Virus record (IMG/VR): IMGVR_UViG_3300050500_000418
Strand: one strand, 5' to 3'
Origin: a virus
DNA: 64,000 bases
The stretch's first letter is position 1; every line of letters starts with the position of its first letter. Both the position numbers and the translations under genes were made by a program. Under the pieces are notes generated by a model. The model was given only the letters and a program-made list of their open reading frames with translations. It had not been told where the DNA came from and searched no databases. Below, piece after piece: positions 3,982-37,904 of the stretch.

Positions 3982-4007
3982 CCGAACCCACTAACCCGGG
4001 TTAGCGT
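3978..4007 (+). promoter_or_regulatory. promoter/operator cassette: -35 TTGACC, CTAACCCGGGTTAG, -10 TAGCGT
   Basis: Exact palindrome 3991-4004; 18-nt -35/-10 spacing; ATG 4014 6 nt after -10. Confidence 0.65.
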
Positions 4008-4431: not shown

Positions 4432-4513
4432 TCCGCGTCTCGGGCCTACACTCACCCCTGTGACCCGGGCCGCCCTGCGCCGAGAACGAGAGCGTCGACA
4501 TCACGCTCACCTC

Positions 4514-4588
4514 GGCGCGGTCGTCTAGCTGGCCCAGGACCCCCGGCTTTCAACCGGGACAACGCGGGTTCGATCCCCGCTCGCGCCG
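4514..4588 (+). tRNA. tRNA-Glu (anticodon TTC)
   Basis: Hand-folded cloverleaf: acceptor GGCGCGG/TCGCGCC, D-arm TCGTCTAGCTGGCCCAGGAC, anticodon loop CTTTCAA, T-arm GCGGGTTCGATCCCCGC. Confidence 0.85.
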
Positions 4589-4597
4589 CCCAGCGAT

Positions 4598-4668
4598 GCC
4601 CCCATCGTCTAGTGGCAGGACAGCACGTTCTCAGCGTGCAAGCGCGGGTCCGATTCCCGCTGGGGGCA
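4598..4668 (+). tRNA. tRNA-Glu (anticodon CTC)
   Basis: Acceptor GCCCCCA/TGGGGGC, anticodon arm GCACG-TTCTCAG-CGTGC, T-arm GCGGGTCCGATTCCCGC. Confidence 0.8.
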
Positions 4669-4673
4669 CCCAA

Positions 4674-4745
4674 GCCTTCATAGCTCAGCGGAGAGAGCAG
4701 CGGCCTACGGAGCCGTGTGCCCAGGTTCGAGTCCTGGTGAGGGCG
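4674..4745 (+). tRNA. tRNA-Arg (anticodon ACG)
   Basis: Acceptor GCCTTCA/TGAGGGC (one G-U), D-arm GCTCAGCGGAGAGAGC, anticodon loop CTACGGA, T-arm CCAGGTTCGAGTCCTGG. Confidence 0.8.
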
Positions 4746-4746
4746 C

Positions 4747-4819
4747 GGTGGCCGTAGCTCAGTGGTAGAGCGCCGGATTGTGCCCCCGGATGCCACGGGT
4801 CCGATTCCCGTCGGTCACC
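4747..4819 (+). tRNA. tRNA-His (anticodon GTG), candidate
   Basis: Extra 5' G(-1) opposite discriminator C as in tRNA-His; loop TTGTGCC. Weakened by an A-C mismatch closing the anticodon stem and C at position 37. Confidence 0.6.
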
Positions 4820-4836
4820 CCAACCCCCCCACCCCG

Positions 4837-6551: not shown

Positions 6552-6624
6552 TCGCGGGTAGTTCAATCGGCAGAACGCCAGCCTCTGGAGCTGGATGTTG
6601 GAGGTTCGAACCCTCCCCTGCGAG
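6552..6624 (+). tRNA. tRNA-Gln (anticodon CTG)
   Basis: Acceptor TCGCGGG/CCTGCGA (one G-U), anticodon arm CCAGC-CTCTGGA-GCTGG, T-arm GGAGGTTCGAACCCTCC. Confidence 0.8.
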
Positions 6625-6806
6625 CCGGGACCGGAGGCTTCCCCCTCTGGGCCACGGGCCTGCCTGTGGCGGAGGCTGGGAGCTGGCGCGTCAGTGCGGC
6701 CTCTGGTCCTGACCCTTCCCTGCCCGTCACACCGGAACACCAGCAGGCCCGGCGCCGGGTCCGAGCGTGGCCAGGAGGCGGGCAAGGGAAGCCGGCCCCC
6801 CGTCCA

Positions 6807-6829: not shown

Positions 6830-7222
6830 ATGCTTACCCCTGACATCGTCGAGTGGATCAACCAGGACCTCAACTACACCCGCCCCGGGTGGAAGGTGTC
6901 CGCCGCTGAGGTGCCCTGCCCTCACGTGGACGTGGATGGGCAGTGGCCCGTCCTCTTCGTGTCGTACGTCGAGGCGGATACCACGCCCGGCGGGACGGGC
7001 GCCCCCTTCCCCCAGACCCGGACCATCCTCATCGACCCCCGCCTCGTCGGTGACGCCGATGACCTGGCCGCCCTGGTCTTCGGGCACATCCTGTGGAGCG
7101 TCATCCACGAGGAGCGGGAGCGCTTCATGGTCAACGGCGCCCAGCCCTACTTCCCGCACCACACCGCCACCCGCGAGACGTGGGACGCCCGCCGCGGCCG
7201 CGTCCTCGCCCAAGTCGACTGA
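6830..7222 (+). CDS. hypothetical protein (leaderless)
   Basis: ORF track; start directly after cassette. Confidence 0.6.
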   Translation: MLTPDIVEWINQDLNYTRPGWKVSAAEVPCPHVDVDGQWPVLFVSYVEADTTPGGTGAPFPQTRTILIDPRLVGDADDLAALVFGHILWSVIHEERERFMVNGAQPYFPHHTATRETWDARRGRVLAQVD

Positions 7223-7226
7223 CCCC

Positions 7227-7256
7227 TCGACACCGCCCGCTAACCACGGTTAGGGT
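7227..7256 (+). promoter_or_regulatory. cassette variant: -35 TCGACA, CTAACCACGGTTAG, -10 TAGGGT
   Basis: 2-mismatch palindrome; 18-nt spacing; ATGAGCAC at 7265. Confidence 0.5.
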
Positions 7257-7264
7257 CAACCGCT

Positions 7265-7801
7265 ATGAGCACCGATCGCGCTGAGGGCCCGGACCCGCTG
7301 TACTGCGCGGCCCGCCCCTGCCCCACCTGCCCCGAGGCCGTCCGCACCCCCGCCGGCATCTGGGCCGCCCACGAGTACGAGAAGCTCGCCGCCTACGACG
7401 AGGACGCCGCCACCGGCCGGGCGCCCTTCGGCGTCTTCCACTGCCACCAGGAGAACGCCACCGGCCGCCCCAGCGTGTGCGTCGGGTGGCTGGGCATCCA
7501 CGGCACCGACGCCATCGCCGTGCGCCTCGCCCTGTCCCGCGGGCAGCTCATCCCCGCTGACGTCGAGAAGGCCCAGGCGACCGACGTCGAGTTGTACCCC
7601 ACCGGTACGGCGGCCCGCGATGCTGGCCTCGCCGGCATCACCAACCCGAGTCCCGAGGCCCACGCCGCCATGGCCCGCCTGGCCCGCAAGGGCGCCGGCC
7701 TGCCACAGACCGAGCACGAGCACGCCCAGGAACCCGCATGTACCACGAGTTGCGCCGCCACCGATGCCGGCGCCGACCCTACGGAACCCGATGCCACATG
7801 A
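7265..7801 (+). CDS. hypothetical protein (leaderless, MST.. start)
   Basis: ORF track. Confidence 0.65.
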   Translation: MSTDRAEGPDPLYCAARPCPTCPEAVRTPAGIWAAHEYEKLAAYDEDAATGRAPFGVFHCHQENATGRPSVCVGWLGIHGTDAIAVRLALSRGQLIPADVEKAQATDVELYPTGTAARDAGLAGITNPSPEAHAAMARLARKGAGLPQTEHEHAQEPACTTSCAATDAGADPTEPDAT

Positions 7802-7967: not shown

Positions 7968-8240
7968 GTGGACCAGCCCACCCCCACCGATCGCGTCCCC
8001 TCCGAGTGCCCCAACTGCAAGGGCGCCGGCATCGTCCCCGACGCCGCCACCGAGCCCGAGCTCGCCCAGTTCGCCGCGGCGTGCGGCGCGCTGCCCGGCG
8101 ACGACTGCCCCAACTGTGAGGGCCGCGGCATCCTCGACGCCCCCGGCGACCAGCCCTCCCGCGAGGACCTCGACGCCATGGCAGGCGGCATGATCGACGG
8201 CCTCGCCCTCTACCTAGGCGACGAGGACGGCTGCCGCTGA
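7968..8240 (+). CDS. small protein with two CPNCxGxG zinc-finger-like motifs
   Basis: GTG 7968 in frame of ORF-track 7620..8240; CPNCKGAG and CPNCEGRG. Confidence 0.55.
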   Translation: MDQPTPTDRVPSECPNCKGAGIVPDAATEPELAQFAAACGALPGDDCPNCEGRGILDAPGDQPSREDLDAMAGGMIDGLALYLGDEDGCR

Positions 8241-8587: not shown

Positions 8588-8781
8588 TGGCCCTCTTCGC
8601 GCCGGAGGGCCGGCCCCGCGGCTGCCACAGCAGCGTGACCCTCCGCATGACCTTCCACACCTGGACGGGCGGCATGTTCACCCTGGCCCCCTGTGACTGC
8701 GGCCGGGCCCTCGCCTCCGGACTGGGCTTCGGCACAGTCACCCTCGACCAGGACCCCGCGGCGGAGGCGGGGCCAGCGTGA
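8587..8781 (+). CDS. hypothetical protein
   Basis: GTG 8587 overlapping upstream TAG, in frame of ORF-track 8413..8781. Confidence 0.4.
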   Translation: MALFAPEGRPRGCHSSVTLRMTFHTWTGGMFTLAPCDCGRALASGLGFGTVTLDQDPAAEAGPA

Positions 8782-9371
8782 ACGGCCCCTACGACGACCC
8801 TGACGTCACCCTGGAGGAGGTCACCGCCCCCCATCCCGTGGGCTTCTACCTAGCGCCCGGTCCCCTCCCCGACGTGCCCCGAGCCCGGCGCCCTCCGCCC
8901 GGGATGTTCACCACGGCCATGGGCCTCGTCCTCCTGGTCGCCGCCGTGAGCGTCGCATACGTCGTCGGCCCCCTCGCCGACCTCACCCAGGGCACCACCC
9001 GCCCGGCCCCGGAGGTCGCCGAAGACGCACCGCCCGCATCCTCGACCACCACCACGACCACGGCGAGGCCCACCACCTCAGCGCCGGCCACCACAGCCCC
9101 TCAGCCCCCGCCTCCTGCCCCGACGATCCCGCCGGCCTCCACCACGAGCCTGGCGCCCACGCCGGCCACCACCGCCCCACCGACGACCGCATCCACCACA
9201 ACGAGTACCACCGCCCCGCCCACCACCTCGACCAGCACCACCAGCACGACCATCCCCCCGTCGACGACGCCGCCGACGGTTCCATGCCCGGGAGATCCAA
9301 CATGCCCACCCCCCTCCGTACCCGAGCCCGCCGCCGACTCATCCTCTTCGCCCTCCGCCACCCCCGGGTAG
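8778..9371 (+). CDS. membrane-anchored Thr/Pro-rich protein
   Basis: ORF track; GTGA overlap; one TM helix then about 110 aa of T/P/S/A repeats. Confidence 0.6.
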   Translation: MNGPYDDPDVTLEEVTAPHPVGFYLAPGPLPDVPRARRPPPGMFTTAMGLVLLVAAVSVAYVVGPLADLTQGTTRPAPEVAEDAPPASSTTTTTTARPTTSAPATTAPQPPPPAPTIPPASTTSLAPTPATTAPPTTASTTTSTTAPPTTSTSTTSTTIPPSTTPPTVPCPGDPTCPPPSVPEPAADSSSSPSATPG

Positions 9372-9392
9372 CCAGGGCACTACACAAGGTCG

Positions 9393-9409
9393 CTAACCGG
9401 TGTTAGTGT
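9393..9409 (+). promoter_or_regulatory. cassette variant CTAACCGGTGTTAG with -10 TAGTGT, heads the MC-array operon
   Basis: 3-mismatch palindrome; ATG 9418 8 nt after -10. Confidence 0.5.
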
Positions 9410-9417
9410 GGCCGGCC

Positions 9418-9627
9418 ATGTGTGACAACTCCAGCAACGGCCACGGCTCCGACTCTGACGCCGGAACGGCCGCCCGGGGCGCCGGCCAGGGATCGAGCCT
9501 CTCCGCCATCTTCGGCCGGCCCACCGACCGGACCACGCCCTCCGGGCGCAATGGCCACCGCATCGGCCTCACCCGCCTGCTGACCCTCGACGTGGCCCGC
9601 CGACTCGCCGCGAGGGGGACCGCCTGA
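9418..9627 (+). CDS. MC-array unit 1 (MCDNSSNGHG..)
   Basis: ATGTGT at 9418 in frame of ORF-track 9400..9627; leaderless position. Confidence 0.6.
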   Translation: MCDNSSNGHGSDSDAGTAARGAGQGSSLSAIFGRPTDRTTPSGRNGHRIGLTRLLTLDVARRLAARGTA

Positions 9628-9773
9628 TGTGCGTGGAACGGACCCGCACCGACGCCGACGGCAACGAGGTCACCGAGATCTGGGTCCGCCGCAACCCCTG
9701 GCGTGAGGGGCCGCCGCCCATGCCCCTCACCCGCCTCCTCCGGCGACTCGCCGGCCTGATCCATGTGCGCTGA
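9627..9773 (+). CDS. MC-array unit 2 (MCVERTRT.., 48 aa)
   Basis: Hand translation; TGATGTGC stop/start overlap; below ORF-track size cut-off. Confidence 0.45.
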   Translation: MCVERTRTDADGNEVTEIWVRRNPWREGPPPMPLTRLLRRLAGLIHVR

Positions 9774-10011
9774 GTCGAACGGCCACGGCGGCGACGGCAA
9801 CGCCCAGAGCGCCGTGAACGATCACACCGGCCGCACCACCTGGGAGGGCATCACCCGCCGAGGCCAGCGCCCCGGCCGCCGCCCCTCCGGCGGCAACGGC
9901 CGCGACGGATCCCACCCCCGATGGGGCACCCCCATGACACGCATCAGCATCCGCCGACGGCTGGCCATCCGCCTCGCCGCAGCGAGCCTGACCTACCTGG
10001 CCACCCGCTGA
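9763..10011 (+). CDS. MC-array unit 3 (MCAESNGHGGDG..)
   Basis: ORF track. Confidence 0.55.
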   Translation: MCAESNGHGGDGNAQSAVNDHTGRTTWEGITRRGQRPGRRPSGGNGRDGSHPRWGTPMTRISIRRRLAIRLAAASLTYLATR

Positions 10012-10190
10012 TGTGCGATAGCAGCAACGGCAACGGCCACGGCGCCCCCGGCGATGCCCGCCGCGTCATCGACCACGCCACCCCCGACCGGCGACGCCGG
10101 CACTTCCTGGGCGGCTGGTCCATCCGCCACCGAGGCAACGGCCACCCACCCCAGCCCGCGCCCACCGCACCTGAGCACGAGGACACCTGA
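10011..10190 (+). CDS. MC-array unit 4 (MCDSSNGNGHG..)
   Basis: ATG 10011 (TGATGTGC overlap) in frame of ORF-track 9921..10190. Confidence 0.55.
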   Translation: MCDSSNGNGHGAPGDARRVIDHATPDRRRRHFLGGWSIRHRGNGHPPQPAPTAPEHEDT

Positions 10191-10192
10191 CG

Positions 10193-10444
10193 ATGTGCGA
10201 TGGAAACGACGGCCCCAAGCGGGGCCGCACCGCAAGAGGCTGGTACGGAGAGCAGTACGACCTCCGCACCCGTGAGGAGCGAAGCCGCTACCCCCGCAGC
10301 GCCGGCAACACCAACCCCGAGGGCCCCGGCTGGCAGCCCCCGCCCCCGACCCGCCGCGGCTGGGAGAAGCCCCCTGACCAGTGGATGGGCCGCACCCTAT
10401 GGCCCATCGCACTACTCACCCGCCTCATCCCCCGGAGGACCTGA
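10193..10444 (+). CDS. MC-array unit 5 (MCDGNDGPKRG..)
   Basis: ORF track; TGAcgATGTGC junction. Confidence 0.55.
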   Translation: MCDGNDGPKRGRTARGWYGEQYDLRTREERSRYPRSAGNTNPEGPGWQPPPPTRRGWEKPPDQWMGRTLWPIALLTRLIPRRT

Positions 10445-10446
10445 CG

Positions 10447-10959
10447 ATGTGCAAGCCCCACCCCACTGATCCCCGCTACTGGTCCAACCCCCCGGACATG
10501 ACCGACCACCCACCACGCGGTGGGATGCAGAACTTCCAGGCCGTCACCGCACCCCTCGTGGCGCTGAGCATCCTCATGGCCTGCACCAACGGCGACGGGG
10601 ATGATGGCGGCGGCCGGCCCGGCCCCCTGGCCCGAGCCCGGGCCTACATGAACGAGCCCATCGATGACGCCCGCGCCCCGCGCAACGGCCCACGCCCGGC
10701 GCCGCCCTTCCACTGGGCCATCCCCGCCGCGCGGGGCCTCCTCCTGATGTGCACAGGCGGTGATGAGAGCGACGACGTGTCCGGGGGTACCCCGCCGCGC
10801 CCCGGCTGGCCGAGCCGCAACGAGGCTGACCAGACGGCACCCCCGGGCGGCTGGGGCAAGTTCAGGATCAGGCCCAAGGGCACGCACGGCCCGTGGAACT
10901 TCCGGCGCATCCTCGACCTGGCCCTGCACCGCCACCCCGCCTACAACCGGCGCGCCTGA
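10447..10959 (+). CDS. MC-array unit 6, composite (MCKPHP.. + signal/lipobox-like LVALSILMAC-TNGDGDD + in-frame MCTGGDESDD)
   Basis: ATG 10447 in frame of ORF-track 10381..10959; TGAcgATGTGC junction; internal in-frame CTGATGTGC at 10744. Confidence 0.55.
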   Translation: MCKPHPTDPRYWSNPPDMTDHPPRGGMQNFQAVTAPLVALSILMACTNGDGDDGGGRPGPLARARAYMNEPIDDARAPRNGPRPAPPFHWAIPAARGLLLMCTGGDESDDVSGGTPPRPGWPSRNEADQTAPPGGWGKFRIRPKGTHGPWNFRRILDLALHRHPAYNRRA

Positions 10960-11483
10960 TGTGCAAGCCCCGCCCCGGTCCCCGGTCCTACCGGGGACCG
11001 GGCGAACCGCAGGGAGGCCTCGACCCCCACCTCAGGGCCAGGACCGCCCAACCCTCCAACGATCGGAGACCGACCATGTGCGACCCCGCAGACCGCGGCC
11101 CCTCCCAGACCATCGAACGACGAGGCGCCCGGCGAGCCCACGATGTCACCACCGGCCGCGAGGACTGGTGGAAGGGCCACGGCTTCATCCCCCTCGCCGT
11201 GCTGGCCCTGGTGACTCTGGCTTGCCCCAACGGCGATGACGGCAACGGTGACCCCGCCGCTCCCCTGCGCGACGTGGACCCCTCCCAGGCCCCGCCCCCG
11301 CGGACCTTCCGGCTCATGACGTGGCTTCGCCAGTCGACCACCAGCGATGGGGGCAACCTCCTCCGCCAGGGCCGACCGGTCGCGTGGTTCCGGTGGACGT
11401 TCCTGGACCTGGACCGGCACGCCCAGGGCTGCCAGTGGGTCCGCTTCCTGCGGGCCCTCGGCTACCGCCGGACGGCCGCGTGA
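10959..11483 (+). CDS. MC-array unit 7, composite (MCKPRP.. + in-frame MCDPADR.. + LAVLALVTLAC-PNGDDGNGD)
   Basis: ATG 10959 (TGATGTGC overlap) in frame of ORF-track 10893..11483. Confidence 0.55.
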   Translation: MCKPRPGPRSYRGPGEPQGGLDPHLRARTAQPSNDRRPTMCDPADRGPSQTIERRGARRAHDVTTGREDWWKGHGFIPLAVLALVTLACPNGDDGNGDPAAPLRDVDPSQAPPPRTFRLMTWLRQSTTSDGGNLLRQGRPVAWFRWTFLDLDRHAQGCQWVRFLRALGYRRTAA

Positions 11484-11620
11484 TGTGCCGGGGCAAGGAC
11501 AACCCCTACATCAAGCGCCCGGCCCCGCCGCCCTCGACCAGCGCGGCCGCTACGCCCCGAGCCCGGCGATCGAAGTGGATCGCCCCCTTCCGGCGCGTCC
11601 TGGCCCTGAGGGCCGCGTGA
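11483..11620 (+). CDS. MC-array unit 8 (MCRGKDNPY.., 45 aa)
   Basis: ATG 11483 (TGATGTGC overlap) in frame of ORF-track 11321..11620. Confidence 0.5.
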   Translation: MCRGKDNPYIKRPAPPPSTSAAATPRARRSKWIAPFRRVLALRAA

Positions 11621-11757
11621 TGTGCGGCCACCAGCAGGAGCCGCCCCCGCCGCCGCTCAAGCCCCCCCAGAAGACCGGCCTCGGCCTCGTGAGCGAGCGG
11701 CGCGGGTGGCTGGGCATGATCGTGCGGCTCCTACGCCGCCGGCCCATCATCGCCTGA
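11620..11757 (+). CDS. MC-array unit 9 (MCGHQQEPP.., 45 aa)
   Basis: ATG 11620 (TGATGTGC overlap) in frame of ORF-track 11347..11757; same length as unit 8. Confidence 0.5.
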   Translation: MCGHQQEPPPPPLKPPQKTGLGLVSERRGWLGMIVRLLRRRPIIA

Positions 11758-12119
11758 TGTGCCAACTCGACCGCCTCCCCGCCGACCAGGCCAGGGAGCT
11801 GAACGCCCGCTACCGCAAGGATGGACACGCCATGTGCTCCAACGATGAGCCCGGCCAGAACCACACCGTCTGCCGGTACCGCCCCGACATGGACGATCCC
11901 TTCAACTCCAACCGCTTCGGTGCGCTGGCCCTGGCCTGCTCCGGCAACGGCACCGACGACGCCGCCGACCAGACGCCCCCCGCCGGCCGCAGCCCCGAGC
12001 CCTACGGCCGAGACTTCGGCTCCCGCCTGCCCCGCTTCTTCGATCGGGCCATCCTGGCCATCGCCTCCGCGGTGGCCTTCGTGGTCGGCTGGACTGTGCG
12101 CGGCCCCGAGGCTCGGTGA
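11757..12119 (+). CDS. MC-array unit 10, composite (MCQLDR.. + in-frame MCSNDEPG.. + FGALALAC-SGNGTDD + C-terminal TM)
   Basis: ATG 11757 (TGATGTGC overlap) in frame of ORF-track 11622..12119. Confidence 0.55.
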   Translation: MCQLDRLPADQARELNARYRKDGHAMCSNDEPGQNHTVCRYRPDMDDPFNSNRFGALALACSGNGTDDAADQTPPAGRSPEPYGRDFGSRLPRFFDRAILAIASAVAFVVGWTVRGPEAR

Positions 12120-12340
12120 TGTGCACCAACCAGAACAGCGGCTCAGGCGAGGGCGGCAGGGACATCGGAAGCGTCGGCGGCTGGGCCACACCCCAGGAGT
12201 CCAACGATCACTACGGGGCCTGGGGGCGTCCCTCCGCCCGCGAACGCGAGCAGCACCAGCGCGAGGAACACCGAGGCCGAGGCCGCCCACCGGGACGCGG
12301 TACCCGCGGCGGCCGCTGGCCCCGACCTGACGGCTCATGA
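12119..12340 (+). CDS. MC-array unit 11 (MCTNQNSGSGEGG..)
   Basis: ATG 12119 (TGATGTGC overlap); ORF-track 12116..12340. Confidence 0.55.
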   Translation: MCTNQNSGSGEGGRDIGSVGGWATPQESNDHYGAWGRPSAREREQHQREEHRGRGRPPGRGTRGGRWPRPDGS

Positions 12341-12531
12341 CCGCCTACCGCCGGCACCGCTGGCGCGCCCTCGCCGCCGGCATCGTGGCCTTCGGCGTCA
12401 CCGTCACCGGCGCCTGCCAGACGCCACCCGATGATGACGACCGGCCCGGCCATACCGACACGAGCCAGACCCCCAACCGGTGCGCCGACGTCGACGGGAC
12501 GGGCCAGGACTGCGAGGACCTGGCCCCATGA
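12337..12531 (+). CDS. small putative lipoprotein (..GVTVTGAC-QTPPDDDD)
   Basis: ORF track; ATGA overlap; basic n-region, hydrophobic core, lipobox-like Cys. Confidence 0.55.
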   Translation: MTAYRRHRWRALAAGIVAFGVTVTGACQTPPDDDDRPGHTDTSQTPNRCADVDGTGQDCEDLAP

Positions 12532-12773
12532 CGACCGAGCTCACCGCAGAGGATCACCTCCTCGAGGTCCTCGATGAGATGCGCGTGCCCATCATCGGCC
12601 CGGCCATCCTCCCCACCCGGGAGGCGGCCGCCGTCGTGGCGCTGCCCATCACCCACGTGAAACTCCGTGCCCTCCGCCGCCGCGGGTACGGCACGTGCGC
12701 CGCCGGCTCCAGCCACGCCTACGTGTGGCCCCCCGACCCCAACCCCCAGGAGTCCCCCGATGTGCAAGAGTGA
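12528..12773 (+). CDS. putative helix-turn-helix DNA-binding protein (excisionase/MerR-like pattern)
   Basis: ATG 12528 (ATGA overlap) in frame of ORF-track 12480..12773; ..ILPTREAAAVVALPITHVKLRALRRRGYG.. Confidence 0.45.
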   Translation: MTTELTAEDHLLEVLDEMRVPIIGPAILPTREAAAVVALPITHVKLRALRRRGYGTCAAGSSHAYVWPPDPNPQESPDVQE

Positions 12774-12939
12774 GCCGCCCCGCCCCAACACCCCCGAGGC
12801 CCGCCGCCAGGCCGACGAGACCCTCGGCCGCATGAAGAGTGAAGGGCCAGACCCCCGCCCGAACGGCCCGTGGACCGCAGCGATGCGCCTCACCGGGGAC
12901 CTCCTATGGTGGGCAACCCGCCGGCCCCGATCAACGTGA
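12760..12939 (+). CDS. MC-family outlier (MCKSEPPRP..)
   Basis: ATGTGC 12760 in frame of ORF-track 12667..12939; N-terminus like units 6 and 7. Confidence 0.45.
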   Translation: MCKSEPPRPNTPEARRQADETLGRMKSEGPDPRPNGPWTAAMRLTGDLLWWATRRPRST

Positions 12940-13322
12940 CGGACGCCGAGGACCAGCACCAGGCCCTGCTGGGGGCCCTCATCGGTGACCGCCGCGACGA
13001 GTGGCGGACCAGCAACCACTTCCGGTTCGGCATCCTCCAGCTCGCGTCCTGGCTGCCCCACCTCGTGGATGCCATCGCCGACCAGGCCGCGAAGGCCGAC
13101 GAGGCGCAGCGCCTCCTCATCGAGATCGAGAAGCGCACCCTCCCGCCCACCTTCCGCCTTGAATCCACCGAGGCCGGCATCAAGGCCACCGTCGGCGACA
13201 AGACCGAGCAGCGCCGCGCCACCGCCGCGGGCATGGGCCTCGACCTGGACGAGCTGGAGGGCGCCGCCCGGTCCGTCATCTTCCATCCCAACGTCATCGA
13301 CGAGGCCAGCCCGGAGGCGTAA
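12906..13322 (+). CDS. hypothetical protein
   Basis: Frame of ORF-track 12870..13322; start uncertain (ATG 12906 or GTG 12870). Confidence 0.5.
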   Translation: MVGNPPAPINVTDAEDQHQALLGALIGDRRDEWRTSNHFRFGILQLASWLPHLVDAIADQAAKADEAQRLLIEIEKRTLPPTFRLESTEAGIKATVGDKTEQRRATAAGMGLDLDELEGAARSVIFHPNVIDEASPEA

Positions 13323-13400: not shown

Positions 13401-13472
13401 CTGGGCGTAGCGCAGCGGTAGCGCACCCGGTTCGGGACCGGGAGGCCGGGCGTTCGAATCGCCCCGCCCAGA
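13401..13472 (+). tRNA. tRNA-Pro (anticodon CGG)
   Basis: Acceptor CTGGGCG/CGCCCAG (C1:G72), D-arm GCGCAGCGGTAGCGC, anticodon arm CCCGG-TTCGGGA-CCGGG, T-arm GGGCGTTCGAATCGCCC. Confidence 0.8.
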
Positions 13473-13475
13473 CCC

Positions 13476-13505
13476 TTGAGCATCCCACCTAACCCCGGTT
13501 AGGGT
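13476..13505 (+). promoter_or_regulatory. cassette variant: -35 TTGAGC, CTAACCCCGGTTAG, -10 TAGGGT
   Basis: 1-mismatch palindrome; 18-nt spacing; ATG 13512 6 nt after -10. Confidence 0.5.
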
Positions 13506-16487: not shown

Positions 16488-16817
16488 ATGAGCACCGACT
16501 ACACCAGCGCCTGCAACGAAGCTGCCACCGCCCAGGGCCTCGACCCCATCACCGCTGCCCTCACCGCGGCGGGCATCGACCATGACGTCGCCCAGACCGG
16601 CGGCTTCTGCATGGTCATCGAGATCACCTCCGCCCACGACGCCGGCGCCAAGCTGTGCATGACGGCCGACACCGCTGAGGACGGCGAGGCCCTCGTGTGC
16701 TACCTGTCCGCTGACGCCGCCCAGGGCGAGGCCGACGAGGTCCTCGTGGGCGACCTGCCCATCGAGGTCGCCGTGGCCACGGCCCGCAGCTTCGTGGACA
16801 GCGGCATCGTCCCCTGA
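16488..16817 (+). CDS. hypothetical acidic protein (leaderless, MST.. start)
   Basis: ORF track. Confidence 0.65.
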   Translation: MSTDYTSACNEAATAQGLDPITAALTAAGIDHDVAQTGGFCMVIEITSAHDAGAKLCMTADTAEDGEALVCYLSADAAQGEADEVLVGDLPIEVAVATARSFVDSGIVP

Positions 16818-20128: not shown

Positions 20129-21616
20129 GTGCCCTCCCCGGCCGAGCTGATCGCCGACCGCCTTGCACGGGAGGACCTCACGCCCCAGGAGCGGCGTGAG
20201 GTCCTCAAGACGGTCGCTGGCCGGGCCAGGGACTGGCGCTTCTGGGCCAGACCCGACCAGCTAGAGCCGCCCGGGGACTGGCAAATCTGGCCCGTCATCG
20301 CCGGCCGAGGAGCCGGCAAGACGAGGACGGGCGCCGAGTACTGCATCGACCGGGCCATCCAGTACCACCGGGCCAACGTGGAGATGCGCGGCGGCCTCGT
20401 GGGCCGGACCGCAGCGGACGTCCGCGACACCATGGTCGAGGGTGAGTCGGGCATCATGGCCTGCCTCGACCGCCGCAAGATCGCAGCGAAGTACGAGCCG
20501 GGCCGCCGCCGCATCGTCATCCGGCCCCTGCAAGCGACGCTTCACACCTACTCGGCGATGGAGCCTGACAGCCTCCGAGGCCCCCAGCATCACACCCTGT
20601 GGTGCGATGAGCCCGGGGCCTGGCGCCACCGCACCGACGCCCAGGGCAACAACGCCTGGACGAACGCCCTCTTCGGGTTGCGCCTCGACGCGGCGGGCCT
20701 CATCCCCCGGGTCGTGGCCACCACCACCCCCAAGCCCATCCCCCTCATCAAGGAATGGTTCGAGGCGTGCGCGCCGTGCAAGCGCCCGGCGGGCCACACC
20801 GGCAAGCACGGTGGCCGGGAGGCCCAGGACGACCGGGAGGCCCCCCTGTGCGGCATCATCGACGGCCGCGTCGTCATGACCCGCGGGAGTCTCTACGACA
20901 ACATCGCCCACCTGGCGCCGATGTTCGTCTCCCAGATCGTCGACCGGTACCGGGACTCGCCGCTGGGCGCACAGGAGATCTTCGGGCGCCTCGTCCTGTC
21001 CAACCCCGGGGCCCTCTGGCAGATGGCCAAGATCGAGGCGTCCCGGCGCCTCACCACCCCCGAGTTGTCCCGGGTCATCATCGCCGTGGATCCGCCGGCC
21101 GAGGCCATCGCTGAGTGCGGCATCATCGTGCTGGGCATCGGCGCCTGGGACCGGGAGGTGTACGTCCTCGATGACCTCTCCCTGGTGGCCCGCGGCGAGG
21201 ACTGGGGCGCCAAGATCGTCGAGGCGTACCGCAACACTGAGGGGCTGTACCCCATCGACCCCAGCCTCGTCGTCGCTGAGCGGAACATGGGCGGCGACAT
21301 GGTCCGCACCGTCATTCACCTCCAGGACTCCGGCATCCTCTACGAGCCCGTCAACGCATCACAGTCCAAGTGGGAGCGCGCCGAGCCCGTTGCCTCCGCG
21401 TACAGCCAAGTCCACCACGTGGACTACTTCCCCGACTTGGAGGCTCAGATGTGCACCTGGACGAAGGACGAGGACTTCTCACCGGACCGCCTTGATGCCC
21501 TCGTGCACGGCGTGCGGTACCTCATGCCCCACATCATCGGGGCGCCGGTGCAGAGCTTCTCGGCCGCGGACCTGCAACTCCAGTCGACAGTCATGCAACG
21601 CGGCGACCGCCTGTAG
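20129..21616 (+). CDS. terminase large subunit
   Basis: ORF track; Walker A VIAGRGAGKTRTG, Walker B-like LWCDEPG; size and position typical. Confidence 0.85.
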   Translation: MPSPAELIADRLAREDLTPQERREVLKTVAGRARDWRFWARPDQLEPPGDWQIWPVIAGRGAGKTRTGAEYCIDRAIQYHRANVEMRGGLVGRTAADVRDTMVEGESGIMACLDRRKIAAKYEPGRRRIVIRPLQATLHTYSAMEPDSLRGPQHHTLWCDEPGAWRHRTDAQGNNAWTNALFGLRLDAAGLIPRVVATTTPKPIPLIKEWFEACAPCKRPAGHTGKHGGREAQDDREAPLCGIIDGRVVMTRGSLYDNIAHLAPMFVSQIVDRYRDSPLGAQEIFGRLVLSNPGALWQMAKIEASRRLTTPELSRVIIAVDPPAEAIAECGIIVLGIGAWDREVYVLDDLSLVARGEDWGAKIVEAYRNTEGLYPIDPSLVVAERNMGGDMVRTVIHLQDSGILYEPVNASQSKWERAEPVASAYSQVHHVDYFPDLEAQMCTWTKDEDFSPDRLDALVHGVRYLMPHIIGAPVQSFSAADLQLQSTVMQRGDRL

Positions 21617-23916: not shown

Positions 23917-24621
23917 GTGAACCTGAACCGACCGCGTCTGGGCCTGGCCGGCCTCGGCGCCCTCATCCTCATGGCCGCCAGCGCATGCTTCCCCCAGTCA
24001 CCCACGCCCGCAGAGCCGTGCCCCACGGACCGGCCCGTCGACGTCTACGAGTTCGGTGACAGCCTCACCGCCTGGGCCAAGAACACCCCCGCCCCCCGGG
24101 CCGGCGAGAGTGAGCCGGGCTTCACCGGCATCTGCCAGCGCTTCACCGAGCAGACGAGCGTGGGCATCTCCGTCAACGCCATGGGAGGCACGAAGGTCCG
24201 CGACCACTTCCCCACGATGCCCAACCTCCTCGCCGGGAAGTGCGCCATGGTCTTCCTGGCCACCAACGACATCGGCAACCTGACCCTCGCCGAGGCGAAG
24301 GCCGACGCTCTGGCCGCCATGAACATCCTCCGCGACGCCGGAGTCCGGCGCATCGTGTGGGGCCTCCTCGACGAGAACAGCGCATCCCACCGCACCGCGG
24401 CCATCGCGTCCAAGACGGTCGCGTACAACGCGTGGCTCATCGACGTGGCCCAGTCGGCCACGTACGGTGACCTCCTGGTCCTCGCTGACTGGCGCGCCGC
24501 GTCCGCCGGCCACGATGACTACCTGCTCCTGGCCAGCAACGATCCCATCCACCACACCGACGCCGGGGCCGACGCCTACGCGGCCTTCATCGTCGCCTCC
24601 TACCTGGAGCTTTGCTCATGA
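23917..24621 (+). CDS. SGNH/GDSL-family hydrolase, putative lipoprotein
   Basis: ORF track; signal + ..LMAASAC; block I FGDSLT, block III LATNDIGN, block V DPIHHTD. Confidence 0.7.
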   Translation: MNLNRPRLGLAGLGALILMAASACFPQSPTPAEPCPTDRPVDVYEFGDSLTAWAKNTPAPRAGESEPGFTGICQRFTEQTSVGISVNAMGGTKVRDHFPTMPNLLAGKCAMVFLATNDIGNLTLAEAKADALAAMNILRDAGVRRIVWGLLDENSASHRTAAIASKTVAYNAWLIDVAQSATYGDLLVLADWRAASAGHDDYLLLASNDPIHHTDAGADAYAAFIVASYLELCS

Positions 24622-36323: not shown

Positions 36324-37904
36324 ATGGTCGACTGCACGCAGATCCCCGTACCGGTCGAATGCCGGCCGGTACGGGCCTACCCCGCGGATCAGCAACCCCG
36401 CCGCGGCACCACGAGCGCCGACTTGCCACTCACGGAGTACCGCGCCCAGTCGGTGAGGGCCCGCACCGGGAGCAACGCCTGCATCACCGCATGGCTAGGC
36501 GACAGCTTCACCGAGGCGTACAACCCGACGAAGCGCAGCTTCCGATGGATCGAGCGGCTCGCCCACCGCCTCAACACCCGCCGCGAGGCCACCGTCCTCT
36601 ACTACCCCGCCGCAGCCTCCACGTTCTCCACGACGGCCGCGAACACCTGGCCCGGCGGCCAAGCCCCCTGGACGTACACAGGATCAGTGGCCGGCTCCGT
36701 CCTCTACGGCGCCGACCTCCACGCCGTGACCATGTCCGCCGCAGCCACGGCGACCATCGTGTGGTTCGGCGACACCATCAACATCCTCTACACCCGCACC
36801 CCCACCGGACCCTCCGCCGCCGCAGTGACCCTCGACGGTGCCGCCCAAACCGTCATCAACGCCAACGGCACCCTCACCCCCGGCCAGTCCGCCACCTACG
36901 GCACCGTCGGGGACTACGGCGTCCACACCCTCGTCATCACCGCCACCAGCGCGCCCCTCATCCTCGAGGGTGCCCTCGTCCACGATGGAACCCGCATCGG
37001 CTTCGGTGTGCCCTTCGACAGCATCTACACCCTGGCCTTCGGGCACGCCGGCTTCTCCACACAGCACTTCGTGGACAACACCGACTGGGTCAAGAGCCTC
37101 GCCTCCATGGCCGGCACCGCCGCCCTCATCGGCATCAGCCTCGGCCCCAACGACGCACTCGAGGACCGCGACGCCGCCGACTTCGGCGCCAACCTCGTGA
37201 CGATCATGGAGCGCATCGACGCCCAGATCGCCAGCCTGGGCATCACCTCACGGCCCGGCTACATGCTCCTCATGATGCCCACGGCGCCCTTCACCTACGT
37301 GGACGCGGCCCACAACGCCGCCCAACTCTTCAACGAGGAACGGGCCTTCGCCGTTGACCTGGCCGCCCTCCTACCTGACGGAGCGGACGGGTGGGGGACC
37401 TTCGACGCCGGCAACGGCCACCCCAACGACGCCGGGCAACTCTGGATCGCGGACCAAGTCGCCCACATCCTCGACCCCGCCGCCCCCTCCGGGCTGCCCC
37501 GCATGGACCCAGGCGGCCCCCTCATCGAGGCGGCCGACACGCCCACCCGCCGGTCGAGTTGGACGGCCAGCTTCGGCATCACGAACGGCCAGACCTACGA
37601 CACGACCTCAGCGGACAACACCGTCCGCGAGCGCCGGCACCGCAAGTGGTTCGAGCCGGGCACCTACACCGCACGCGTCCGCTACGAGCAGATCACCACC
37701 ACCGGCGGGACCGTCCAAGTCCTCATCGGCAACTCGTCGTGCGGGACCGTGGCCACCACCGGCACCACCGGCACCATCGGAGAGACCGCCCTGGGGACGC
37801 CCGTCGTCATCGACACGCCCGGCTGGTACCCCGTGACCATCCGCAAGACGGCCGCCAGCTCCGCCGCGCTGCGCTTCATGCGCCTCAAGTGCGTCGCGGC
37901 CTGA
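36324..37904 (+). CDS. SGNH/GDSL-hydrolase domain protein with C-terminal beta-rich domain (virion-module location)
   Basis: ORF track; block I WLGDSFTE, block III LGPNDA, later ..GHPND.. motif. Confidence 0.6.
   Translation: MVDCTQIPVPVECRPVRAYPADQQPRRGTTSADLPLTEYRAQSVRARTGSNACITAWLGDSFTEAYNPTKRSFRWIERLAHRLNTRREATVLYYPAAASTFSTTAANTWPGGQAPWTYTGSVAGSVLYGADLHAVTMSAAATATIVWFGDTINILYTRTPTGPSAAAVTLDGAAQTVINANGTLTPGQSATYGTVGDYGVHTLVITATSAPLILEGALVHDGTRIGFGVPFDSIYTLAFGHAGFSTQHFVDNTDWVKSLASMAGTAALIGISLGPNDALEDRDAADFGANLVTIMERIDAQIASLGITSRPGYMLLMMPTAPFTYVDAAHNAAQLFNEERAFAVDLAALLPDGADGWGTFDAGNGHPNDAGQLWIADQVAHILDPAAPSGLPRMDPGGPLIEAADTPTRRSSWTASFGITNGQTYDTTSADNTVRERRHRKWFEPGTYTARVRYEQITTTGGTVQVLIGNSSCGTVATTGTTGTIGETALGTPVVIDTPGWYPVTIRKTAASSAALRFMRLKCVAA

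Follow-up and report, generated by a model that had tools for sequence, protein, structure and literature searches.

The window analysed here is the whole 64,000-nucleotide stretch of IMG/VR virus record IMGVR_UViG_3300050500_000418. Between positions 9418 and 12340 of its plus strand, it carries an array of eleven chained open reading frames (ORFs), each of which begins with methionine followed by cysteine. The Cys at position 2 is the central subject of this study, since it is kept throughout related phage arrays whose proteins are otherwise very diverse, and the same Cys-led unit occurs behind hydrophobic stretches with canonical lipoboxes in fused proteins. The whole analysis is sequence computation, and all other arrays are metagenomic.

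The Met-Cys array and its transcription unit

An earlier note on this DNA listed fifteen ATGTG(C/T) motifs in and just after the array, and all fifteen positions are correct. The plus strand of the window contains 23 such motifs, of which 15 lie inside 9418-12760, and the excess claimed in the note is upheld, with 15 motifs against 0.4-0.95 expected in 3.35 kb (Poisson P 1e-13 to 1e-18). The both-strand total for the window is 38 against 36.2 expected from shuffling, and it is therefore the clustering that is unusual. The motifs define eleven consecutive Met-Cys ORFs of 45-174 codons, as first described, including two neighbours (mini-genes 8 and 9) of 45 codons each. Motifs at 10747, 11076, and 11832 are in-frame internal Met-Cys sites, and the motif at 12760 is the start of an outlying gene. 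The features of the transcription unit are listed below; L004, L089, L093, L094, and L095 are related contigs described in the next section, and a hyphen precedes each lipobox Cys.

9381-9409, plus strand: promoter/operator copy, with -35-like TACACA (9381-9386), a 17-nt spacer, and -10 TAGTGT (9404-9409)
9418-9627, plus strand: mini-gene 1, 69 aa, MCDNSSNGHG..., sole Cys is Cys2
9627-9773, plus strand: mini-gene 2, 48 aa, MCVERTRTD...LTRLLRRLAGLIHVR, start inside the gene 1 stop (CTGATGTGC)
9763-10011, plus strand: mini-gene 3, 82 aa, MCAESNGHGGDG..., 11-nt overlap with gene 2
10011-10190, plus strand: mini-gene 4, 59 aa, MCDSSNGNGHG..., without a hydrophobic tail
10193-10444, plus strand: mini-gene 5, 83 aa, MCDGNDGPKRG..WYGEQYDLRTREERSRY.., orthologues at L089 10692 and L094 3191
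10447-10959, plus strand: gene 6, 170 aa, three units, MCKPHP..., start GTG-TGC in L004
10959-11483, plus strand: gene 7, 174 aa, MCKPRP.., with the anchor domain WFRWTFLDLDRHAQGCQW at its C-terminus
11483-11620, plus strand: mini-gene 8, 45 aa, MCRGKDNPY...WIAPFRRVLALRAA, N-terminal half swapped in L004 with Met-Cys kept
11620-11757, plus strand: mini-gene 9, 45 aa, MCGHQQEPPPPP...WLGMIVRLLRRRPIIA
11757-12119, plus strand: gene 10, 120 aa, MCQLDRL.., internal MCSNDEPG at 11832
12119-12340, plus strand: mini-gene 11, 73 aa, MCTNQNSGSGEGG...GRPPGRGTRGGRW, missed by a public gene caller, orthologues at L093 2002 and L095 2541
12337-12531, plus strand: small classical lipoprotein precursor (putative), 64 aa, MTAYRRHRWRALAAGIVAFGVTVTGA-C QTPPDDDD, signal peptide and lipobox by the PROSITE PS51257 pattern judged by eye
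12528-12773, plus strand: 81-aa ORF of the same operon, start not Met-Cys, no family match
12760-12939, plus strand: outlying Met-Cys mini-gene, 59 aa, MCKSEPPRPNTPE..., in L004 strongly diverged and with an ATG-TGT start
12906-13322, plus strand: 138-aa ORF, last protein gene before the next promoter cassette
13401-13474, plus strand: tRNA-Pro (CGG), distal end of the transcription unit

The earlier note counted eight junctions of the form (C/G)TGATGTGC. All eight motifs are present, although at 10745 no ORF stops, since the ORF beginning at 10447 reads through this motif in frame (..GLLLMCTGG..). The true junctions are seven one-base stop/start overlaps, two TGAcgATG spacers of 2 nt that the note had also reported, and one 11-nt overlap at 9763. 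The 12337 lipoprotein gene is chained to mini-gene 11 via an ATGA overlap.

The N-terminal sequences quoted in the note are accurate, and so is the protein architecture that it described, consisting of Met-Cys, a polar stretch, a basic stretch, and a hydrophobic, Arg-containing tail. Its proposal of a C-terminal amphipathic Trp/Arg/Leu helix holds in part: a hydrophobic Arg-rich tail is common, but its amphipathicity is not significant, with 9 of 12 ORFs having a hydrophobic moment no higher than that of shuffled controls. Cys2 is the sole Cys in each of the nine short ORFs, eight of which are strongly basic (pI 10.4-12). Some units are detectable paralogues, and the motif Q.AVN.HTG..W of mini-gene 3 is also found by eye in the first units of the L093, L094, and L095 arrays, with BLAST similarity that is not significant.

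The three longer genes contain several units each. Gene 6 opens with MCKPHP..., followed by a hydrophobic (h-) region and the lipobox ..LVALSILMA-C46 TNGDGDD, and has a further internal unit, ..GLLLM-C TGGDESDD, at 10747. Gene 7 runs from MCKPRP.. through MCDPADRG at 11076, an internal start led by a Shine-Dalgarno (SD) sequence, to an h-region with the lipobox ..LAVLALVTLA-C PNGDDGNGD and the conserved C-terminal domain. Gene 10 continues after 11832 with ..FGALALA-C SGNGTDD and then a C-terminal hydrophobic helix.

A promoter cassette precedes the array, as the note proposed, with GCTAACCGGTGTTAGTGT at 9392-9409 showing two mismatches to the consensus GCTAACCCGGGTTAGTGT. Its palindrome is degenerate (CTAACCGGTGTTAG, 9393-9406) and sits inside the -35/-10 spacer. 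The first ATG (9418) is 8 nt downstream of the promoter copy, and the first cistron is therefore leaderless or nearly so. The genome cassette occurs in about 22 plus-strand copies in the window and reads TTGACc..GCTAACCCGGGTTAGTGT, followed 7 nt later by ATGAGCAC; with a start that close, many genes of this phage would be leaderless and begin Met-Ser-Thr. In the cassette, the spacer contains a perfect palindrome, CTAACCCGGGTTAG, which overlaps the TAGTGT/TAGTAT -10 element (e.g., at 3990, 16463, 31345, 38339, and 49544).

The next plus-strand cassette copy is at 13488, and no plus-strand terminator-like site precedes it, which is in line with the statement that the array lacks an internal cassette or hairpin. 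For the same reason, the unit also takes in the 12337, 12528, 12760, and 12906 genes and tRNA-Pro. Stops and starts overlap or lie a few nucleotides apart on one strand, as is expected for translational coupling, and the chained coding ORFs fall within a single promoter-to-promoter unit, again as the note had supposed. The region is predicted to be one early, translationally coupled operon that extends from the promoter at 9381-9409 to approximately 13400.

The eleven ORFs are coding. GC content at third codon positions (GC3) is approximately 0.9 in precisely the called frames, and the frame of high GC3 switches at every ATGTGC. A public gene caller independently called 10 of the 11. In nine conserved ORFs compared with L004 (Logan SRR30692733), the single relative of approximately 95% identity, synonymous and non-synonymous codon changes number 42:35 in the called frames and 16:59 and 11:65 in the other plus-strand frames, and substitutions by codon position are 22/15/46 (P = 7e-5). 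The called frames are under moderate purifying selection. Long minus-strand ORFs straddle several called frames and have the composition of shadow ORFs. The earlier note had named another conserved frame or strand as the finding that would overturn it, and both GC3 and the synonymous excess favour the called frames. That the ORFs are not genes at all, and that the ATGTGC spacing instead reflects an array of DNA repeats or sites or coding in another frame or strand, has next to no chance of being correct. High GC does yield many long spurious ORFs on both strands; however, the frame-tracking GC3 and synonymous excess speak against this idea, as do the wholly plus-strand coding of the phage, the orthologous proteins on other contigs, and the lack of any repeat family that covers the array.

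Relatives of the array and constraint on residue 2

Word-based searches with the 174-aa ORF matched only L004. A phmmer search of 1.84e9 representative proteins recovered nine remote homologues (34-59% identity) of the C-terminal domain of ORF 11076-11483. This anchor domain has the motif WFRW.F.DLD.H..DC.W and is common to all arrays found. Eight of the nine homologues start MC (or VC, from GTG-TGC); in the ninth, Met-Cys follows an upstream extension that is part of the gene call. The homologue contigs L089, L093, L094, and L095 are phage-like, range from 56 to 71% GC, and have the same chain architecture and junctions. L089 (57.6 kb, 70% GC) contains an unbroken chain of 12 ORFs at 10001-12609, every one of which starts ATG/GTG plus TGC/TGT, mostly via (C/G)TGATGTGC, with tails such as ..PWFARLTLWAVS, ..PWWFSGLRWVWS, and ..GWWFRGLRWVTG. 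The chains of L093 (63% GC), L094 (56% GC), and L095 (71% GC) comprise 8, 4, and 5 ORFs, respectively. L089 also has an extra Met-Cys mini-gene away from its main chain (16642-16803), like that of the window at 12760-12939.

Individual array members have orthologues across these contigs. Window ORF 10193 is orthologous to L089 10692 and L094 3191 (WYGG...QL.REER.R), and window ORF 12119 is orthologous to L093 2002 and L095 2541 (..GRPPGRGT.GG.W), with both alignments beginning at Met-Cys. Three non-array genes, one of which adjoins the array, are common to L089 and the window at 31-45% identity. The earlier reading of the locus as a rapidly diverging array of paralogues is incomplete, as at least three window ORFs (10193, 11076, and 12119) have orthologues in distant Met-Cys chains. 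Turnover does occur, since L004 differs from the window by two replaced cassettes and one indel, but the anchor domain is conserved at 30-57% identity. The operon is evidently an old, conserved feature of a phage group, with cassette turnover among close relatives.

Further searches define how far this group extends. None of 80 loci in JGI metagenomes anchored on the neighbouring DUF6283 gene has a Met-Cys array, and IMG/VR scans with the promoter motif, the terminase, three protein-family profiles, and a two-junction DNA pattern gave no further arrays. GTDB genomes yielded no further arrays by WFRW-domain patterns, and only chance matches and simple tandem repeats by the two-junction pattern. 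Matches to that pattern include L142 6643-6830 (Conexibacter sp. DBS9H8 chromosome), L140, and L111 (an Anaerolineae metagenome-assembled genome); these are unrelated tandem repeats of 17 nt (GGTGCGGCCTGATGTGC, 11 copies) and of approximately 141 nt, and not Met-Cys chains. No array homologue was found in deposited phages by DNA and protein searches, and a match to Gordonia phage Clawz is spurious. In line with the note, which did not recognise the family, the array proteins are without match in Pfam, NCBIfam, PHROGs, PADLOC, PDB sequences, and INPHARED. There is one exception, L089 12100, whose mature domain has matches among the hypothetical lipoprotein genes of Gordonia phages. Neither Met-Cys gene chains nor lipoprotein-like phage arrays turned up in a literature search.

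Several observations separate a constraint on the protein from one on the nucleic acid. The L004 orthologue of 10447 has GTG-TGC as its start, and that of 12760 has TGT as its Cys codon. In place of the 10193 ORF, L004 has an unrelated ORF of 67 codons, and its 11483 ORF has a different N-terminal half; both replacements still begin Met-Cys. The Cys codon is kept across all start types, namely leaderless, one-base overlap, 11-nt overlap, 2-nt spacer, and SD-led internal starts. Six further (C/G)TGATG junctions elsewhere in the genome continue with CGC, CCA, GCC, CCG, GCC, and CAC, and none of the other 55 called genes has a Met-Cys start. DNA identity at the junctions is limited to 6-9 nt. The GTG/TGT variants, the Cys at every junction type, and the other codons elsewhere show that Cys at protein position 2 is selected, and by this comparison selection on Met-Cys acts at the protein level.

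On the same evidence, an RNA- or DNA-level cause of the ATGTGC motif was rejected. So were other candidate causes. Programmed -1 frameshifting or readthrough that fuses cistrons fails because no slippery sequence precedes the stops and GC3 takes the new frame past each junction. Hidden signal peptides 5' of the Met-Cys starts do not exist, as upstream in-frame sequence is either absent or not hydrophobic. Integron- or invertase-like cassette shuffling is contradicted by the lack of long conserved sites and of any recombinase nearby.

Lipoprotein resemblance and rival explanations

Met-Cys opens all 51 of the 51 non-redundant ORFs drawn from the five arrays and singleton homologues, whose contigs span 56-72% GC. 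Of the 99 Cys residues in these ORFs, 77 begin a unit, with 51 located at ORF starts, 14 at internal ..MC sites, and 12 behind an h-region and lipobox. Most of the remaining 22 are the invariant anchor-domain Cys or lie inside a folded domain. The 12 lipobox Cys follow hydrophobic stretches of 12-15 residues (e.g., ..LVLAIVALA-C, ..LLLATMLA-C, and ..LAVLALVTLA-C). Residues after the Cys are alike in all three contexts and are mainly G, S, D, N, and P; mature lipoproteins typically have a flexible tether of such G/S/D/N-rich composition.

The two kinds of context also meet within single genes. Gene 10 of L004 is shorter than that of the window by 36 codons, at an indel flanked by TGCTCC (Cys-Ser) repeats, and what is a lipobox-like context in the window is there a plain Met-Cys start. 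At the end of the L089 chain, gene 12100 consists of a Met-Cys unit, an h-region, the lipobox ..ILLGG-C, and a folded domain. This domain has a homologue in gp95 of Gordonia phage Orchid, which is itself a lipoprotein precursor of the ordinary kind (MKKLIALVFMSLFIVTA-C). In the window, the classical lipoprotein gene at 12337 is chained directly to the array. Across these contexts, the start-Cys and lipobox-Cys positions are shown to be homologous, and the units to be homologous to the Cys-plus-tether module of lipoproteins.

Within each separate cistron, the residue before the Cys is the initiator Met, but the ends of the upstream cistrons have lipobox-like preferences. Among 35 cistrons that precede a Met-Cys cistron, counted as if related ORFs were independent, the last residue (-1) is G/A/S in 24 (background 0.25, P = 8e-8), residue -2 is A/S/T/V/I in 25 (P = 5e-10), and residue -3 is hydrophobic in 16. 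The stop/ATG therefore falls at the position at which signal peptidase II would cleave a lipoprotein precursor, an arrangement termed here a 'split lipobox'.

Each unit may be described as a Cys, a flexible G/S/D/N-rich tether, a short conserved or basic motif, and a hydrophobic/Arg/Trp tail that ends in small residues. The unit exists in two forms: a separate cistron, whose preceding stop overlaps ATG-TGC, and an in-frame fusion behind an h-region, in which the junction is a canonical lipobox (..L-A-C) or ..A-M-C. After Met removal, the N-terminal Cys may serve as an attachment point, through lipidation or other thiol/amine chemistry, and bring the mini-proteins to the membrane or envelope. 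The normal Lgt/LspA route would serve those members that have a true signal peptide, and another route the signal-less ones. The early, promoter-proximal position and the association with true small phage lipoproteins favour an early function directed at the envelope, and the set could act in superinfection exclusion or in remodelling of receptors or the envelope of the host. Taken as a whole, the reading of a conserved early Met-Cys mini-protein operon whose N-terminal Cys anchors its products to the membrane or envelope has about an even chance of being right.

The narrower proposal of a signal-peptide-independent route that uses the translation-start Cys as a covalent attachment point is rather unlikely. 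One version would have the N-terminal Cys acylated at the inner membrane face, possibly by a phage SGNH/GDSL enzyme; in another, the signal-like tail of the preceding cistron would aid export during coupled translation. If true, a 'split lipobox' operon would produce many lipopeptide-like effectors from one mRNA without signal-peptide processing.

Several points weigh against membrane anchoring. All 11 chained ORFs are without a signal peptide and have Cys as residue 2; an h-region ahead of a Cys is present only at the 12337 gene and at the internal sites of the 10447 and 10959 ORFs. The tails of the short ORFs have a mean Kyte-Doolittle value of approximately 0.1, compared with 2.3 for true h-regions. 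Without a signal peptide and with such weakly hydrophobic tails, canonical Lgt/LspA processing is not expected, and to our knowledge there is no signal-independent lipidation route in bacteria. The tail counts do not allow for relatedness among ORFs, and an SD-like GGTGA in the same codons may shape them. The other, metagenomic arrays were all recovered via one anchor domain, which introduces an ascertainment bias. Purifying selection is moderate, with approximately half of codon changes synonymous against one 95%-identical relative. AlphaFold models of the 135-aa anchor protein reach pLDDT 56 alone and 48 with a 7-sequence alignment, and this low confidence gives no structural support for any function.

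In the weightiest of the rival explanations, the products would be cytoplasmic, basic, and largely disordered mini-proteins, and the lipoprotein likeness would be an evolutionary relic. The exposed N-terminal Cys would act as a chemical or regulatory handle, such as a conditional N-degron, a site of redox or metal chemistry, or a site for conjugation catalysed by phage or host. Met is normally removed before Cys, given the specificity of methionine aminopeptidase. The short ORFs have neither signal peptide nor transmembrane segment, and their basic pI and single thiol at Cys2 would also suit such proteins. This alternative is unlikely, as a low-complexity tether directly after the Cys, with the motif further in, is the layout of an anchored protein and not of a catalytic or metal site. 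Homologues use the same unit start behind canonical lipoboxes, and the lipobox-like residues at -3 to -1 of upstream ORFs would be left unexplained. Membrane anchoring through the Cys remains the preferred reading over two further alternatives. A neutral founder effect, in which an ancestral gene and its junction were tandemly duplicated and recombination or gene conversion kept the junction without selection on Cys, is very improbable. Some units are indeed paralogues, and the swapped cassettes of L004 have their boundaries at ATGTGC and the C-terminal tail. However, the junctions share 6-9 nt without extended DNA identity, the start and Cys codons vary synonymously (ATG/GTG and TGC/TGT), and Cys2 is invariant over orthologues of 30-40% identity on contigs of 56-72% GC, with protein identities of 30-57% that speak against recent horizontal copies.

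A role of the Cys codon in translation is quite improbable as well, if slightly less so than the founder effect. In this alternative, UGC/UGU at the second codon (+2) would tie initiation or re-initiation to charged tRNA-Cys or cysteine supply, or provide a favourable start context. The leaderless first cistron and the coupling of all the rest are compatible with it, and there are precedents: leaderless short ORFs exert Cys-codon-dependent control in mycobacteria (bioRxiv 10.1101/834739), and tRNA-Cys-cleaving toxins stall ribosomes at Cys codons (PMC13096801). Nevertheless, a single Cys codon in the first cistron would suffice for control, and Cys is kept at internal unit starts and behind lipoboxes, where initiation is unnecessary. 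The character of the residues after the Cys is also conserved, and other coupled junctions and approximately 20 leaderless genes of this phage have other second codons.

Invariance of residue 2 over 51 proteins that are very diverse elsewhere is a strong sign of function, and we know of no process that accounts for it. The natural interconversion of Met-Cys start and lipobox raises the question of whether an N-terminal Cys made by initiation can serve anchoring or modification. If it can, the operon would reveal a new way to make membrane-tethered peptides in bacteria and give a role to a set of phage 'dark matter' genes. Even otherwise, several new conserved families of mini-proteins are defined by the operon, along with a searchable signature, chains of (C/G)TGATGTGC junctions.

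Genome setting and comparison with known systems

The window has a G+C content of 71-72%, and all of its coding is on the plus strand. It contains a T4-type large terminase (20129-21616) and a long tape-measure-like ORF. The same sequence is present on metagenome contigs ENA ERZ27257760 k141_4352694 (101,344 bp) and ERZ27257655 k141_4629075 (101,343 bp). These two independent assemblies open at different points of the shared sequence, and the window extends beyond the end of one; the different end points suggest a complete, circularly permuted phage genome of approximately 101 kb. The nearest terminases are 36-39% identical and mostly of actinobacterial phages, and together with the lipoprotein similarities they point to Actinobacteria as the probable host. 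Over its whole length, the window has a C-rich coding strand (G 0.31, C 0.40, GC skew approximately -0.13); that of L089 is G-rich (G 0.40, C 0.30). Six tRNA genes lie at 4513-4822, 6552-6626, and 13401-13474 (Glu-TTC, Glu-CTC, Arg-ACG, His-GTG, Gln-CTG, and Pro-CGG), with no tRNA-Cys among them.

Immediately 5' of the array, the gene at 8778-9371 encodes a protein of 197 aa that has a single hydrophobic helix and a long mucin-like region rich in Thr and Pro, and that matches no family. Further upstream, a 90-aa ORF at 7968-8240 has a weak DnaJ-type CXXCXGXG zinc-finger match under the Pfam cut-off. The L089 array is also preceded by several small Cys-rich ORFs. Two genes of the GDSL/SGNH hydrolase family are present in the window at 23917-24621 and 36324-37904, and L089 has a homologue of the former at 7047-7691, 2.3 kb upstream of its Met-Cys chain. 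The former is a candidate enzyme for acyl transfer, but to tie it to the Met-Cys array is pure speculation.

Coupled small-gene phage operons with ATGA/TGATG junctions share with the array its seven one-base overlaps, two 2-nt spacers, and one promoter, and this junction type occurs elsewhere in the genome. Ordinary coupling, however, leaves the second codon free, while the array always has Cys. Mycobacterial polycysteine ORFs resemble it in a leaderless first cistron, early Cys codons, and a probably actinobacterial setting; they occur singly, contain consecutive Cys codons, and lie upstream of genes related to cysteine (bioRxiv 10.1101/834739). In contrast, the array has one Cys per cistron, cistrons of 45-174 codons, conserved protein, and no Cys-metabolism gene downstream.

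Rows of genes for several small, cationic, Trp-containing, signal-less peptides link the array to aureocin A70 and to Corynebacterium PorA/PorH. Aureocin A70 is a leaderless multi-peptide bacteriocin, and PorA/PorH are signal-less proteins that are lipid-modified on Ser and have no N-terminal Cys. PorA/PorH illustrate that, in Actinobacteria, a small protein can acquire a lipid modification and arrive at the envelope without a signal peptide. Unlike these systems, the array has Cys starts, and it shows no sequence similarity to them; no dedicated transporter or immunity gene is seen by the array.

Among phage proteins, T5 Llp is a small early lipoprotein in superinfection exclusion (bioRxiv 10.64898/2026.03.26.714494). 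T5 Llp and Orchid gp95 are, like the array products, small, early, Cys-anchored proteins (for the array, putatively so), and the last array gene of L089 is homologous to gp95. They differ in being single genes with ordinary signal peptides, compared with 4-12 chained, mostly signal-less cistrons here. Bacterial lipoproteins in general (Lgt/LspA/Lnt; lipobox [LVI][ASTVI][GAS]C) have an invariant Cys that opens the functional polypeptide and is followed by a G/S/D/N-rich tether, and some array members and the 12337 gene have true h-regions and lipoboxes. Most array members instead have Cys right after the initiator Met, without a signal peptide, and their lipobox-like residues at -3 to -1 sit in the previous cistron; lipidation of array members is hypothetical. 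Because the defining signal peptide is absent in most members, the array proteins are not classifiable as lipoproteins. The closest known kind is nonetheless the bacterial lipoprotein; the missing signal peptide sets most members apart from it, and the fixed second codon sets the array apart from ordinary coupled operons.

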